Part shown: piece by piece, positions 1 to 9,541 of the stretch
Layout of the letters: the number at the start of each line of letters is the position of its first letter
How positions within the stretch are numbered: position 1 is the first letter of the stretch
Origin: a virus
Lineage: Duplodnaviria; Heunggongvirae; Uroviricota; Caudoviricetes
Length of the DNA: 9,541 nt
IMG/VR virus record: IMGVR_UViG_2548876863_000015
Reading direction: 5' to 3' (one strand)
Translations under genes and position numbers: made by a program
Notes under the pieces: model-generated
Databases searched by the model: none
The model's input: only the letters and a program-made list of their open reading frames with translations
Told to the model about the DNA's origin: nothing

Positions 1-11
1 ATGATAGTTAT
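1..11. repeat. Terminal direct repeat ATGATAGTTAT, copy 1; candidate att core / element boundary
   Basis: Identical 11-mer occupies bases 1-11 and 9531-9541, i.e. the very first and last bases of the window. The repeat could extend beyond the window. Confidence 0.5.
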
Positions 12-21
12 TTATCAGTTA

Positions 22-39
22 GTGTTCGTGGGTGTTCGT
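22..39. repeat. Two GTGTTCGT copies 10 bp apart; candidate arm-type integrase binding sites
   Basis: GTGTTCGT at 22-29 and 32-39; same TGTTCG core as the arrays at 95-131 and 9403-9429. Confidence 0.4.
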
Positions 40-94
40 CATGGTGTGGGCATCTAATTTATTTCTATGATTATAAAGGATAATTTCGTTTTTC

Positions 95-162
95 TTGTTC
101 GCCCTTGTTCGTCACAGTTCGCCCTTGTACGATGCACGGTGTAGTCAATGGTGTAGTTAATT
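95..162. repeat. Left arm module: four TTGTTCG-type heptamers at ~10-bp phasing plus tandem 12-mers GGTGTAGTCAAT / GGTGTAGTTAAT
   Basis: TTGTTCG at 95-101 and 105-111, variants AGTTCG at 116-121 and TTGTACG at 125-131; 12-mers at 139-150 and 151-162. The same module recurs at 9403-9460. Lies directly upstream of int. Confidence 0.55.
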
Positions 163-184
163 TTGATGACCGGAAACACGAAAC

Positions 185-1408
185 ATGAGCAGGGCAATTC
201 ATAGACTTAGCGACACTCTTTTACGAAAATTAAGCGGATCACCAACCACAAAAAGCACCTTTTTTAATGATGGTGGCAACCTTAGCGTAAGGCATTCAAC
301 CAATGGCCTGTTAACCTGGTATTTCACTTACAGGTCCGGAACTGGTAGGCAGATATCACCTGAACGTCTGAGGCTGGGAAATTATCCAGATTTGAGCCTG
401 AAAGCAGCCAGGGAAAAAGCGTCGCAATGTCGCGCATGGCTGGCTGAGGGGAAAAATCCGCGCTATGAACTTAATCATGCTGTACAGGACGCGTTAGCCC
501 CCGTGACGGTTAAGGAAGCGCTCACTTACTGGCTTGAATCGTACGCAAAGGAAAAGCGCACTGACTACGAATCACTGAAAAGCCGGATCAATAAACACAT
601 AATTAGCCAGATTGGAGCTATGCCACTGGAAAAATGCGAGCTACGCCACTGGCTGGCCTGTTTTGACCAGCTTGCTAAGCGTAATCCGGTATCAGCCGGA
701 TTTTTGCTACAGGTATGCAAACAGGCGCTTAAGTACTGCCGAAAACGACGATACGCAATCAGCAACGTTCTTGATGATATGGTTGTCGGTGATGTTGGGA
801 AAAAAGCAGAAATAAGCGAGCGCGTACTAACAAACAAGGAGCTTGGGGAATTACTACGCGCCCTTGATGAAAAAATTTACCCACCGTACTACAGCGCCCT
901 GATTCGCCTCCTGATTGTCTTCGGATGTCGTACCACTGAGCTAAGACGCTCTGAGGTCCAGGAATGGGATTTTAAAGAAATGCTCTGGACCGTGCCGAAA
1001 GAACACAGCAAAACGAAGGTAGCAATATTCAGGCCAATACCGGAAGCGATCTTGCCGTTTGTCATGAAGCTGGTGGAGCAGAACAGGCACACGGGCTTAT
1101 TGCTCGGAGAACTGAAAGGGCAATCATCCGTATCAGAGTACGGAAGAACGGCACACAGACGCATTAATCAAGCCCCCTGGACGTTGCACGACATCCGGCA
1201 CACGTTTACAACGATGCTGAACGATTTAGGCGTGGAACCGCATGTTGTGGAGCAGCTTACCGCGCACCAGTTGCCAGGAATGCAACGAGTCTATAATCAC
1301 TCCCGTTATCTTGATGCAAAACGTGACGCTCTTAATCTATGGGTTGAGCGCCTCGATGTGCTGGCTGGAAATCATGAAAATATTGTTATGCTGAAGGTGG
1401 CCAAATGA
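185..1408 (+). CDS. int: Tyrosine recombinase / integrase, P4-type (N-terminal arm-binding domain plus C-terminal catalytic domain)
   Basis: 407-aa ORF. N-terminus (LSD...GLLTWYFTYRSG...LGNYPDLSLKAAREKA) fits the arm-binding domain pattern of P4/CP4-57-type integrases. C-terminal part carries the catalytic Arg in TTELRRSE, the HDIRHTF (H-x-x-R) box and a terminal Tyr region (VYNHSRYLD). Weak SD. Confidence 0.9.
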   Translation: MSRAIHRLSDTLLRKLSGSPTTKSTFFNDGGNLSVRHSTNGLLTWYFTYRSGTGRQISPERLRLGNYPDLSLKAAREKASQCRAWLAEGKNPRYELNHAVQDALAPVTVKEALTYWLESYAKEKRTDYESLKSRINKHIISQIGAMPLEKCELRHWLACFDQLAKRNPVSAGFLLQVCKQALKYCRKRRYAISNVLDDMVVGDVGKKAEISERVLTNKELGELLRALDEKIYPPYYSALIRLLIVFGCRTTELRRSEVQEWDFKEMLWTVPKEHSKTKVAIFRPIPEAILPFVMKLVEQNRHTGLLLGELKGQSSVSEYGRTAHRRINQAPWTLHDIRHTFTTMLNDLGVEPHVVEQLTAHQLPGMQRVYNHSRYLDAKRDALNLWVERLDVLAGNHENIVMLKVAK

Positions 1409-2178
1409 AATTACCTAAAAGACTCTATTATCCGTTACCTGAAGCGGCAGAAAAGTTAGGCTGTGCAATAAAAGATCTTTATCATTACGCATATATAGGT
1501 GCTCTTAATATTTCTGTATATATACCAAAAATTGATGCTAAAAAATTCAATTTTTCATTATGTCATTTTATCAATGGTTGTAATGAGGAAGAATTAATAA
1601 AATATCCTTTCAATGATGAATCTGCTGTTTTTGGAAGTAATTTTACAGTTGGTTTAACTGGTGACACTGAATTTTTAGATAGTGCCATTATTGGTCCTGT
1701 AGGGAATTCTATCAAATGTTATTATGTTAGCAGCTTATCAGGGTTTTATTATACTCCGGCATATGTTTTTGCTGATGTCGAATTTAGCATGAGACAATAT
1801 ATAAAATGTTCTCATCTTACGAATAAGTATGGTGATGATAATCTCATGTATGTTTTTTGTAAGGGTGGTTATGAATTTGATGTTAACTATTTGTGTGTGA
1901 TGGCTAGTGATTTAGATAATATAAAAAATACGGGAGACTTCCCGAAGATAACAGAAGATAGCCCAAAAGCATCGTCAAAAAGGAATGAGGTTATTTACTC
2001 TTTAATTAAACTTATTCCAGAAATGGGTGATGTAGACCTGGACACGGAATCATTACCTAAAATAGCAGATTTAATTGATTCTATAGCTGCATCCAGAGGG
2101 ATAGAATTTCCAAAAACACATTGGCAGACATGGCAAAAGTATTTGGGGCGTGAATCTCAACAAAAACGTAAAAAGTGA
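1405..2178 (+). CDS. Hypothetical protein, 257 aa, AT-rich, no domain recognised; candidate accessory/cargo gene
   Basis: Start overlaps the int stop (ATGA at 1405-1408), suggesting translational coupling. Composition is visibly AT-rich (roughly one-third G+C by eye) against about half in flanking genes. Uninterrupted 257-codon frame, Tyr/Phe/Asn-rich, basic C-terminal tail (QQKRKK). No Walker, HEPN or nuclease motif recognised by eye. Confidence 0.7.
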   Translation: MKLPKRLYYPLPEAAEKLGCAIKDLYHYAYIGALNISVYIPKIDAKKFNFSLCHFINGCNEEELIKYPFNDESAVFGSNFTVGLTGDTEFLDSAIIGPVGNSIKCYYVSSLSGFYYTPAYVFADVEFSMRQYIKCSHLTNKYGDDNLMYVFCKGGYEFDVNYLCVMASDLDNIKNTGDFPKITEDSPKASSKRNEVIYSLIKLIPEMGDVDLDTESLPKIADLIDSIAASRGIEFPKTHWQTWQKYLGRESQQKRKK

Positions 2179-2203
2179 TATCACGTGCTGGTAGTGTGAT
2201 ATC
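2176..2203. promoter_or_regulatory. Two copies of the perfect palindrome GTGATATCAC separated by 8 bp; candidate regulator binding site
   Basis: GTGATATCAC at 2176-2185 (overlapping the orf257 stop codon) and 2194-2203. A TAGAAT -10-like hexamer follows at 2229-2234 without a good -35. Confidence 0.4.
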
Positions 2204-2234
2204 ACACAAACGGCGTTTTACTACCGCCTAGAAT

Positions 2235-2269
2235 CGTCCTCGTTCGGCAACGTTCGAGGACGTTTTTTT
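2235..2269 (+). terminator. Rho-independent terminator that also contains the alpA Shine-Dalgarno
   Basis: 8-bp stem CGTCCTCG (2235-2242) / CGAGGACG (2255-2262) with a 12-nt loop, followed by a T7 run (2263-2269) that abuts the alpA ATG at 2270. The only SD-like sequence for alpA (GAGGA, 2256-2260) lies in the 3' arm of the stem. Confidence 0.6.
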
Positions 2270-2494
2270 ATGAATCAAAATACACAATTTCAATCACTAT
2301 CAGATCGCGTAATCCGTGAGGATGAATGCCGTAAGTTAACAGGAGTGTGCCGCACTACACGCTACGAACTGGAGAAAAAAGGGAATTTCCCGTCACGCCG
2401 TAATCTGGGTGGTCGTTCAGTAGGTTGGCTGCTTTCCGAGGTTATGGAATGGGTTAAAAGCCGGGATCGTATTAATTCAGGTAAGGCAGCGTAG
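2270..2494 (+). CDS. alpA: AlpA-family transcriptional regulator / excisionase-like HTH protein
   Basis: 74-aa ORF. Motif ...CRKLTGVCRTTRYELEKKGNFPSRRNLGGRSVGWLLSEVMEWVKSR matches the AlpA / phage-regulatory HTH family pattern (L-TG-S--T-Y-----G-FP----LG-R-V-W--SEV--W). Position immediately downstream of int is typical for Gram-negative PICIs and P4-like islands. Confidence 0.8.
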   Translation: MNQNTQFQSLSDRVIREDECRKLTGVCRTTRYELEKKGNFPSRRNLGGRSVGWLLSEVMEWVKSRDRINSGKAA

Positions 2495-8790: not shown

Positions 8791-8812
8791 CGATATGGGG
8801 ATCACCATATCG
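8791..8812. repeat. 22-bp near-palindrome CGATATGGGGATCACCATATCG, copy 2
   Basis: Identical to 8673-8694; the two copies bracket copy 1 of the 83-bp direct repeat. Confidence 0.6.
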
Positions 8813-8894
8813 GGATACGGCGGTAACTGGTTGATATTTTCGAAATTCGCCAGCGGCGAACATCGGGGAAACCAGCCTAACCCGTTGATTCTTC

Positions 8895-8921
8895 CCAATT
8901 TCCACAGACTGCGGAAATTGG
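8895..8921. repeat. Stem-loop: 9-bp inverted repeat CCAATTTCC / GGAAATTGG with a 9-nt loop
   Basis: 8895-8903 is the reverse complement of 8913-8921. Confidence 0.5.
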
Positions 8922-9003
8922 CGCGGTAACTTACTGAGATTAAAGCAAAGCGCAAAATTGCGTTGGCTGGTGGGCCTGATGCCGATAACTGGTTGGAATT
9001 GTT

Positions 9004-9027
9004 CCATAGTGCAAAATTGCACTATGG
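9004..9027. repeat. 24-bp palindrome CCATAGTGCAA-AA-TTGCACTATGG
   Basis: 11-bp perfect arms around a central AA. Shares the core GCAAAATTGC with a shorter palindrome CGCAAAATTGCG at 8951-8962. Other short palindromes of the same half-site style nearby: CCCCCATTGGGGG (9053-9065), CCTCAATTTGAGG (9107-9119), CCCCACTGGGG (9217-9227). Confidence 0.6.
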
Positions 9028-9236
9028 CCTAACCCATTGATTATTTCGAAAACCCCCATTGGGGGATGTTGGGAAAGTAAGACTAACCCATTGATTCTTC
9101 CACAATCCTCAATTTGAGGAGATCGGAAACATCACCCTTCAAATTCTGAATGGTCATAATGACCACGCAGACCATCAAGGCAACCACAACGAACATCGTT
9201 ACGGTTGGAGCTTTTACCCCACTGGGGAAAAGGTAC

Positions 9237-9319
9237 GCACCTGAATCATCATTACCGTGATCAAGGGTATGTAAAGGCCACCAGCCTGATTAACATTTAA
9301 CCGGAAAAAAAGCCAGGTA
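9237..9319. repeat. 83-bp direct repeat, copy 2
   Basis: See copy 1 (8700-8782). Followed by a degenerate half-copy of the 22-bp palindrome (CCATATCGGG at 9331-9340). Confidence 0.8.
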
Positions 9320-9402
9320 GGTGGGGATACCCATATCGGGGAACATCCACCAGCTTCATAACGGATGGCCGGAAAATGATAACGGTTAAAGCGTGTTGAT
9401 CT

Positions 9403-9460
9403 TTGTTCGTGGTTGTTCGATATTGTTCGTGAAACGGTGTAGTTAATGGTGTAGTTAATT
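9403..9460. repeat. Right arm module: three TTGTTCG heptamers at exact 10-bp spacing plus tandem 12-mer GGTGTAGTTAAT x2
   Basis: TTGTTCG at 9403-9409, 9413-9419, 9423-9429; GGTGTAGTTAAT at 9437-9448 and 9449-9460. Same module and same orientation as 95-162. Confidence 0.55.
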
Positions 9461-9530
9461 TCGCTGTTTTTGACGGAGTTGTTATTTGTAACATAGTGAA
9501 AAATAAAGACTAATCAATGAAATGTTATAA

Positions 9531-9541
9531 ATGATAGTTAT
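9531..9541. repeat. Terminal direct repeat ATGATAGTTAT, copy 2; candidate att core
   Basis: Identical to bases 1-11. Confidence 0.5.

Follow-up and report, generated by a model that had tools for sequence, protein, structure and literature searches.

Phage-inducible chromosomal islands, or PICIs, are phage satellites for which the SatelliteFinder model defines a core of integrase, regulator, primase-replicase, capsid morphogenesis gene and small terminase subunit (TerS) gene, and the Type A elements, in which all five components are present, come almost all from Escherichia coli (de Sousa 2023, PMC10085698). In the E. coli island EcCICFT073, AlpA has been identified as the activator of the cycle, dependence on a helper phage has been shown experimentally, and the roles of Int and of the Pri-ori module have been described (PMC6092414). 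Here we describe a 9541 bp stretch of viral DNA (IMG/VR record IMGVR_UViG_2548876863_000015, the window), read from attL core to attR core, which we take, with a probability of about 0.88, to be a complete Gram-negative PICI of the EcCI family and SatelliteFinder Type A, delimited exactly from attL to attR and packaged in the manner proposed below.

EcCICFT073 resembles the window in the integrase, alpA, rgdR, the primase gene (pri-rep) with its iteron origin, the capsid homolog and a cos-type packaging layout, but has no TerS; instead, its Rpp protein and the phage TerS join in a heterocomplex, and its cosN, of lambda/phi80 type, goes with a private cosB. The window, in contrast, encodes a full-length TerS with no match to Rpp and has a cos-like block from another phage lineage, and neither Rpp nor a lambda/phi80-type cosN, the features of Rpp-type E. 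coli PICIs, was found in it. Among the pathogenicity islands of Staphylococcus aureus (SaPIs), SaPI1 and SaPIbov1 also encode a TerS that redirects the large terminase subunit (TerL) of the helper to satellite DNA, whereas their packaging is headful, their capsids are remodelled by CpmA/B rather than by a capsid homolog, and their host is Gram-positive. The cos packaging of SaPIbov5 relies on an HNH-dependent terminase. SaPIbov5, likened here by description, shares with the window a helper-type cos site and a capsid-protein homolog, and differs in being Gram-positive, regulated by the Stl repressor and without a terS of its own; its Ccm protein sits in capsid pentamers and changes capsid size and shape (PMC8569155). 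Satellite P4 has an arm-binding integrase, an AlpA/Vis-family regulator, a primase-helicase, an icd-like gene and a helper-type cos site in common with the window, but its Int, AlpA and Pri-Rep are only distantly homologous to their PICI counterparts (PMC6092414), and the P4-specific sid, psu, delta and epsilon are absent from the window.

Delimitation and integration site

An identical 11 bp direct repeat, ATGATAGTTAT, occupies both ends of the window (Table 1), as had been noted in an earlier reading of the sequence alone (the sequence-only reading), and apart from the arm repeats no other 11-mer is common to the 300 nt at either end. The core in attB is embedded in ATGATAG-TTAT-CTATCAT, a 7 bp inverted repeat of the type used as core by tyrosine recombinases. 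The entire window aligns at 98.8% identity with the chromosome of the O157:H7 strain 7.1_Anguil, between yljB/cspD and clpS, and the target is the yljB/cspD-clpS intergenic region of E. coli. A synthetic empty site of 611 nt, consisting of the left flank, one core and the right flank, was used to search complete genomes (n=5426) and was recovered unbroken at 100% identity, the uninterrupted site being present in 5057 of the 5426 genomes. Because the synthetic site was recovered in one piece, the 11 bp repeat is the true boundary of the element and nothing of it continues outside. The same core and the cspD-clpS site are listed for EcCIIHE3034 and EcCI18098 (Fillol-Salom 2018, ISME J, Table S1; PMC6092414); the family, the att core and the gene set are already published, and the island is an ordinary member of a known family.

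The sequence-only reading had proposed that the window is a compact satellite, whole and flanked by att repeats of its own, a proposal that could have failed if the repeat were coincidental or if genes ran past the ends. Neither was found, and this exact delimitation of a phage satellite had been achieved by reading sequence without tools. A tRNA or tmRNA gene, which it had advised looking for in the flanks, is not the target: no tRNA lies within the window, and the flanks point to the intergenic target. As it had stated, integrated and excised forms cannot be told apart from the window alone, yet all related copies found are chromosomally integrated. At least 80% of the window was found in 38 genomes, with end-to-end alignment to E. 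coli chromosomes; among the matches listed, full-length identity was 97.7-98.8%, and strain CV261 matched at 99.8% over 97% of the window. Hosts of these copies include O157:H7, O103:H2 and O121.

Table 1 Features of the 9541 bp window, with positions counted from its first base
Feature	Position	Strand	Evidence and remarks
attL core ATGATAGTTAT	1-11		Shares bases with the TGA stop of host yljB (window 2-4)
P' arm	12-184	+	TGTTCG repeats, then tandem GGTGTAGTYAAT at 138-161
Tyrosine integrase with N-terminal arm-DNA-binding domain	185-1408	+	Pfam Arm-DNA-bind_3 2e-16, Phage_integrase 2e-17
Accessory open reading frame (ORF) orf257, 257 aa, 32% GC	1405-2178	+	Between int and alpA; no family assignment
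alpA upstream region	2175-2262	+	Two palindromes GTGATATCAC, then hairpin and U7
AlpA-family regulator	2270-2494	+	Pfam Phage_AlpA 3e-16
YlcI/YnfO-family small protein, 59 aa	2629-2808	-	NCBIfam NF041551 5e-18; phrog_949
Icd-like ORF	3008-3211	+	NCBIfam phage_ICD_like 1e-17; structured leader 2904-3007 upstream
Small ORFs (phrog_3672, phrog_1478, phrog_5796)	3204-3813	+	PHROGs only
DUF4222/RgdR-family protein, 99 aa	3819-4118	+	Pfam DUF4222 1.5e-24
P4-family primase/D5-type helicase (Pri-Rep)	4115-5863	+	Pfam D5_N, DUF5906, Pox_D5
Replication origin	5878-6103		CCTCTACCC-type iterons, downstream of primase gene
81-aa ORF (phrog_1231)	6214-6502	+	Intrinsic terminator 6478-6502 after ORF
Two small ORFs, 64 and 53 aa	6590-6949	+	Start of packaging cassette; kept with cassette in the O26 island (L008)
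cos-like block	6953-7033	+	Homologous to HNH-terS intergenic DNA of Shiga toxin (Stx)-type lambdoid phages
AAGTTACA repeats	7037-7310		Two before terS (7037, 7049), six within terS (7238-7310)
TerS homolog	7080-7568	+	Pfam Terminase_2 1.4e-10
53-aa ORF with acidic tail (EEEEDDL)	7580-7741	+	phrog_641 positions 89-125, E 3.5e-7
HK97-type major capsid protein homolog	7731-8654	+	Pfam Phage_capsid 1.3e-6, 28.4 bits (cutoff 24.2)
3' non-coding region	8655-9340		~690 bp of repeats: palindromes CCCGATATGGGGATCACCATATCGGG, 88-nt direct repeat, six-unit array
P arm	9341-9530	+	TGTTCG at 9404, 9414, 9424; tandem GGTGTAGTTAAT at 9436-9459
attR core ATGATAGTTAT	9531-9541		clpS upstream region directly after

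Attachment arms and integrase

Just inside each end lie the arm-type modules that had been read from the sequence, and these now stand as two sets of motifs beside an integrase with an arm-binding domain. TGTTCG recurs in 10 bp phase at 23, 33, 96 and 106 on the left and at the three P-arm positions on the right, every copy being on the plus strand, so that the arms hold 7 of the 11 TGTTCG sequences of the window; degenerate copies lie at 116 and 126 in the P' arm. The tandem GGTGTAGTYAAT begins at 138/150 and again at 9436/9448, giving 4 copies where 0.03 are expected. Both motif sets are unchanged relative to EcCIIHE3034 while the spacers between the motifs vary, and int has 90% DNA identity with the EcCIIHE3034 gene. 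It can soundly be inferred that in a circle both arms flank a single core, in the order P-O-P'.

The sequence CGGTGTAGTTAATGGTGTAGTTAATT, found at 9434-9460 and 136-162 of the window, is the 'att site core' given for EcCIDI14 in Table S1 of Fillol-Salom 2018. Since it is the tandem arm repeat of the integrase family of the window, the published EcCIDI14 core probably represents arm sites and not the crossover core.

Classification

The SatelliteFinder criteria were applied through Pfam models, not through SatelliteFinder's own profiles, and all five PICI core components are present, which corresponds to Type A. Scans of all ORFs against Pfam, PHROGs and NCBIfam found no lysis or tail genes and none of the components that the model forbids (tail, holin, portal, head-tail connector/attachment), the only match of a forbidden type being an insignificant one (phrog_1289, E 0.005) to a 53-aa coiled-coil ORF. 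The features by which Fillol-Salom 2018 recognised PICIs are likewise found: a direct-repeat core at a specific att site with an empty site in other strains, a size within ~7.5-15 kb with int at one end and co-oriented genes, an AlpA gene, and at most a few morphogenesis or packaging genes. The earlier observation that all long ORFs but one small gene share an orientation holds, the YlcI/YnfO-family gene being the only credible minus-strand gene of the window.

The content had been described as that of a PICI or P4-like satellite, and of these two labels the first stands on the five core components and the second falls with the absence of psu, sid, delta and epsilon. A P4-like satellite, which uses Sid, Psu and Delta to exploit a P2-type helper, would have the same arm-binding integrase, AlpA-family gene, 'P4 family' primase annotation and Icd-like ORF, and SatelliteFinder scores a typical P4-like element as a Type C PICI, three components being common to both (PMC10085698). 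This origin is nevertheless highly improbable, because in the three collections searched none of the ORFs has a match to Psu, Sid, Delta/Ogr or epsilon (the psu-delta-sid operon and epsilon being 4 of the 7 P4 core components), the island has a terS and an HK97-type capsid homolog that are missing from P4, its cos-like block is akin to that of lambdoid HNH-type phages and not to that of P2, and its att core has been published for PICIs.

Having its own capsid-protein homolog and TerS, the island might also be thought a capsid-forming PICI (cf-PICI), which builds its own capsids and steals only tails. The genes for portal, prohead protease, head-tail adaptor/connector, TerL and HNH endonuclease are all absent, however; a cf-PICI is defined by these genes, which the PICI model treats as 'forbidden' (PMC10085698), and 9.5 kb leaves no room for them. 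The gene content refutes this reading, the least credible of the alternatives considered.

Packaging cassette

The cos-like block, with CGATCACCCTGGACACCGCCCCCCGTCTCA as its core, is also conserved in an island of O26 E. coli (L008), and the G-run before the core (6953-6961) is G9 in the window, G7 in L008 and G8 in phage. It is 78-90% identical to its phage counterpart, which was found in ~78 records of Stx1a, Stx2c and Stx2 phages as unannotated DNA right before terS; in phage Stx1_14040 the matching DNA is the HNH-terS intergenic region. The head module of these candidate helpers runs in the order HNH endonuclease, TerS (Terminase_2), TerL, S78 protease-major capsid protein (MCP) and portal. 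A homologous non-coding block lies at the place expected of an HNH-cos element, with HNH and TerL in the phage, and by position and conservation it is a candidate cos site. No lambda cosN was found in the window.

The AAGTTACA repeats that follow are mostly in 12 bp phase, and all six exact copies in the window fall within this tract. At the equivalent place the phage has TGTTAAC five times and not AAGTTACA, and the copies within terS line up with a repeated (K)VT peptide, one that phage TerS lacks. The AAGTTACA repeats are candidates for cosB-like sites at which TerS binds specifically to the island. Over its full length the island TerS shares 47% identity with the TerS of a large set of Stx1a/Stx2c/Stx2 and PPompW lambdoid phages, among them the Stx1a phage Stx1_14040, and its C-terminal residues 88-157 are the part best conserved relative to phage. 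The possibility that this TerS-like protein is an Rpp was considered and rejected, as a search of the PDB gave no match between its sequence and Rpp; a PDB search with two candidate EcCIIHE3034 genes gave no match either.

The capsid homolog, which represents the 'capsid morphogenesis' component, lacks a protease/scaffold part. It is 25% identical to residues 291-625 of the 645-aa protease-MCP fusion of helper type, and its subfamily consists of stand-alone proteins of ~315-330 aa. If the 'packaging region' of the sequence-only reading was meant to be the 3' non-coding repeats, it is not supported, as these match neither helper cos nor lambda cos and the cos-like block lies before terS.

Mosaic structure and distribution

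Relative to EcCIIHE3034, identity of 87-90% is seen in int and the P' arm, alpA, the ylcI/icd region, the rgdR-pri-ori segment and the P arm, whereas positions 6500-8800 are unrelated. The two islands have the same core and target; identity amounts to 90% for integrase plus P' arm, to 90.5% for the P arm and to 87.5% for a stretch that starts with the RgdR-family gene and takes in pri, the origin and most of the ORF next downstream. They differ in the cassette, which in EcCIIHE3034 is of lambda type (lambda cosN in two copies, a gene of the Nu1 family, a capsid protein of the gpE family and a head decoration protein) and in the window of HK97/HNH type (cos-like block, Terminase_2 TerS and HK97-type capsid homolog), and the window further has the 257-aa accessory ORF and no gene for a single-stranded DNA-binding protein (SSB). 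One backbone with two cassettes, lambda-type and HK97/HNH-type, is a clean natural experiment on helper switching.

Conversely, the O26 island, which lies beside yejM/tRNA-Pro, has a packaging cassette 95% identical over window positions 6228-8696, a segment that takes in the cos-like block with the AAGTTACA repeats, terS and the 53-aa ORF, and the capsid homolog with the palindrome behind its gene, but it has another integrase and att site, a RepA-type helicase in place of the P4-type primase, and a short 3' region with a single unit whose integration host factor (IHF) site is one base off consensus. The yejM site is listed for EcCI11368.1 and EcCI11128 (PMC6092414, Table S1), with which the O26 island is equated by site and serotype only. 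Judged from these alignments, the packaging cassette is exchangeable between backbones. It was found in 220 of the 5426 genomes, and those listed are largely O157, O26, O111 and O103, many of them from cattle or human cases.

These comparisons also bear on whether the window is a decayed remnant, that is, a cryptic prophage or inactive PICI that has kept its att repeats but can no longer be mobilised. Such regions are annotated by RefSeq as ordinary phage-like genes, a difference in G-tract length splits or merges two small ORFs between copies, the rgdR allele carries R20C, one of six differences in a variant that is inactive for type III secretion, and the helper is an inferred one. Against decay, the five core genes are intact in a compact element free of lysis, tail and portal genes, near-identical copies (97-99.8%) occupy the same site in O157:H7, O103:H2 and O121, the presence of the cassette in other backbones speaks for recent mobility and module exchange, and conservation is perfect at the att cores and in the arm sites. 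We consider a remnant improbable, and a complete PICI the better account of the locus.

The island and its cassette reside in the enterohaemorrhagic E. coli lineages O157:H7, O103, O26, O111 and O121, and the island seems fitted to the head module that Stx-type lambdoid phages have. By competing for the terminase of an Stx phage, a satellite could lower or reshape the release of Shiga-toxin phage. It could also spread cargo, namely an RgdR-family regulator and a fast-evolving 257-aa gene.

Proposed life cycle and packaging mechanism

By extension from EcCICFT073, a helper phage would turn on alpA, and AlpA would activate the island genes. Int would then excise the island by core-to-core recombination, leaving a circle in which the P arm, one core and the P' arm are joined; the expected circular junction is AATGTTATAA-ATGATAGTTAT-TTATCAGTTAG, and the attB restored after excision is expected to read GATAG-ATGATAGTTAT-CTATCATGTGG. 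Pri-Rep would copy the island from its iterons into concatemers, again as in EcCICFT073. The helpers are predicted to be Stx-type lambdoid siphophages with an HNH - TerS(Terminase_2) - TerL - protease/MCP fusion head module. The island would hold a copy of the helper cos core just before its own terS, with the TGTTAAC repeats of the helper replaced by the AAGTTACA repeats, and this division into a helper-type cleavage site and island TerS repeats is drawn by analogy to lambda cosN/cosB and to HNH-dependent cos phages. The island TerS, whose conserved C-terminus presumably serves oligomerisation and contact with TerL, would recruit the helper TerL and HNH to island concatemers rather than phage DNA. 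The scaffold-less capsid homolog would probably co-assemble with the helper capsid protein and alter capsid size, and a role like that of Ccm in SaPIbov5 is plausible by analogy. A private TerS and private AAGTTACA repeats on the cos core of an HNH phage would require neither the helper TerS nor an Rpp adaptor.

Several points weigh against this reading. The excision, replication and transfer of the island and its helper are predictions; the label 'cos-like' rests on position and conservation only, and the blocks of island and phage are just 78-90% identical. The AAGTTACA copies in terS could partly reflect repetition at the protein level, as (K)VT. The capsid homolog of EcCICFT073 is dispensable for interference with phage lambda, and the AlphaFold model of the capsid homolog of the window was too poor for use in a fold search (pLDDT 51, from a 6-sequence alignment). 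TerS proteins of the Terminase_2 family are common among headful (pac) phages and SaPIs, and pac sites often lie within terS, as the repeats do here. This last point opens the alternative of pac-type packaging as in SaPI1 and SaPIbov1, with the AAGTTACA repeats in and before terS as pac and the upstream block not a cos site at all. An HNH gene directly before terS, on the other hand, is a hallmark of HNH-dependent cos packaging, as in HK97 and phi12-type phages; the homologous phage module has its HNH endonuclease gene in that position, and an 80-nt non-coding block is conserved between the island and phages exactly between HNH and terS. Headful packaging is accordingly considered unlikely, although less so than decay of the island, and HNH-dependent cos packaging is preferred.

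Site array in the 3' non-coding region

The palindrome CCCGATATGGGGATCACCATATCGGG is present at 8671-8696 and at 8791-8812, the second copy keeping 8 of 10 stem pairs, and a flipped copy lies 3' of the capsid gene in the O26 island as well; as it has no T-run, it is not a classical terminator. The 88-nt direct repeat (8695-8782 and 9232-9319) is 95% identical over copies 537 bp apart and is bracketed by CCCGATATGGGGATCACCATATCGGG copies. On its minus strand the region also has four perfect matches to the IHF consensus, where 0.59 are expected, and none on the plus strand. Each is preceded by a short palindrome of its own, different from the others, whose centre is exactly 17 nt upstream in 3/4 sites, while the fourth has an imperfect, longer palindrome at ~18 nt; a palindrome of at least 5 bp within a 5-nt window is found at 1.7% of random positions. 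Two more degenerate units extend this to an array of six at 8823-9130.

The 17-nt palindrome-IHF geometry recurs three times in the 3' region of EcCIIHE3034, and it is found within roi in two phages, HK022 and the Stx-type JLK-2012; the coordinates for sites with this architecture are 10440-10700 of locus L003, 6780-6820 of L012 and 1501-1558 of L004. The unit at 9083-9122 is identical in 40/40 positions to the roi site of an Stx phage, and the similarity ends at the edges of the site. An element spanning 9083-9225 is common in E. coli, being present in 961 of the 5426 genomes, where the sampled records show it in unannotated DNA or antirepressor genes. That the units are decayed roi or antirepressor coding sequence was rejected, since the identity to roi ends sharply at the 40-nt site; the 152 nt between 8878 and 9030 also place array units in different reading frames. 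Two further candidates for the region were rejected. A lambda-type cos was dismissed by comparison with lambda cos, and for a helper-type cos only a 15-nt chance match (E 2.6) was obtained, between a TGTTAAC-type phage element and 9284-9298 on the minus strand, inside the 88-nt repeat. The 11-mer GGGCGGCGACC within pri (5251-5261) is no more than a chance match (E 1.3), and pri of EcCIIHE3034 contains it as well.

The Roi protein of HK022 reportedly binds a site in its own gene beside an IHF site. On the strength of the shared site sequence and spacing, we suspect that the 3' array is a binding platform for helper Roi-family proteins and IHF, which could allow an early helper protein to be sensed or titrated by the satellite or to insulate it, the array acting as sensor, decoy or roadblock. 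According to Fillol-Salom 2018 (PMC6092414), the activator of Gram-negative PICIs had yet to be identified. The roi-like palindrome-plus-IHF array is a testable clue to the helper signal that the satellite reads. That the island represents a third packaging strategy of Gram-negative PICIs, based on a private TerS, and that it uses its 3' array as a Roi/IHF platform are put forward tentatively, as readings that we judge possible but would not favour at even odds. The palindrome-IHF array is the sole unexpected feature of the island, and interest is confined to this array and to the uncharacterised, helper-matched cassette.

Replication origin and neighbouring genes

Eight copies of CCTCTACCC with at most one mismatch were found in the origin region where 0.9 are expected, and eleven CCTCTACCC-type iterons in all are arranged as convergent pairs about an AT-rich stretch at 5896-5931 (70-77% AT), a layout that agrees with the E. 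coli PICI origins described in PMC6092414. Promoter and terminator consensus scans of the window were not enriched over shuffled sequence, and the terminator after the 81-aa ORF alone was used.

Upstream of alpA, two perfect 10 bp palindromes GTGATATCAC lie at 2175-2184 and 2196-2205, 21 bp apart (0.01 expected), the first of which overlaps the stop codon of orf257. They are followed by a terminator-like hairpin (-24.1 kcal/mol, z -3.6) whose U7 ends right at the alpA ATG. This arrangement suggests that alpA is under operator control, possibly with attenuation or antitermination. The product of orf257 has a predicted Xis/MerR-like winged-helix N-terminus and a helical C-terminus, both conserved, around a hypervariable beta-rich middle, and its relatives number only 19 (clusters), all in Enterobacterales. 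The PADLOC defence-system models matched neither orf257 nor the small ORFs; orf257 is a candidate cargo gene, with a defence function or as a helper-sensing regulator.

The RgdR-family protein of the window has C-G-D at residues 20-22, with Cys for Arg20. RgdR (ECs1581) is a 99-aa protein with RGD at 20-22, a homolog of which has been reported in IHE3034, and R20C is one of six differences in the variant of the commensal ED1a, which is inactive for activation of type III secretion (PMC3378721). The gene, as rdgR, is given for every E. coli PICI in Table S1 of PMC6092414.

The 53-aa ORF between terS and the capsid gene is weakly like the C-terminal part of another TerS family and has no similarity to the helper-type TerS; it could encode a small interference or adaptor protein. 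Upstream of the Icd-like ORF, the plus-strand leader folds modestly better than shuffled sequence (z -2.3). No known RNA family reached its gathering score in the window, and a sub-threshold SymR-like covariance match (33.8 against 61 bits) lies at 2935-3007 on the minus strand, antisense to this leader. By analogy with P1 c4 and P4 CI, the Icd-like ORF could be controlled by an antisense or leader RNA. Among the small ORFs that follow, a G7 tract at 3378-3384 merges ORFs 3204-3392 and 3390-3581 in one frame. With G6 in its place, the two genes are separate and overlap in the O157 copy L001, and the G7 copy in CV261 (L002) is a pseudogene according to RefSeq. The difference reflects either slippage-prone variation or a sequencing artefact.

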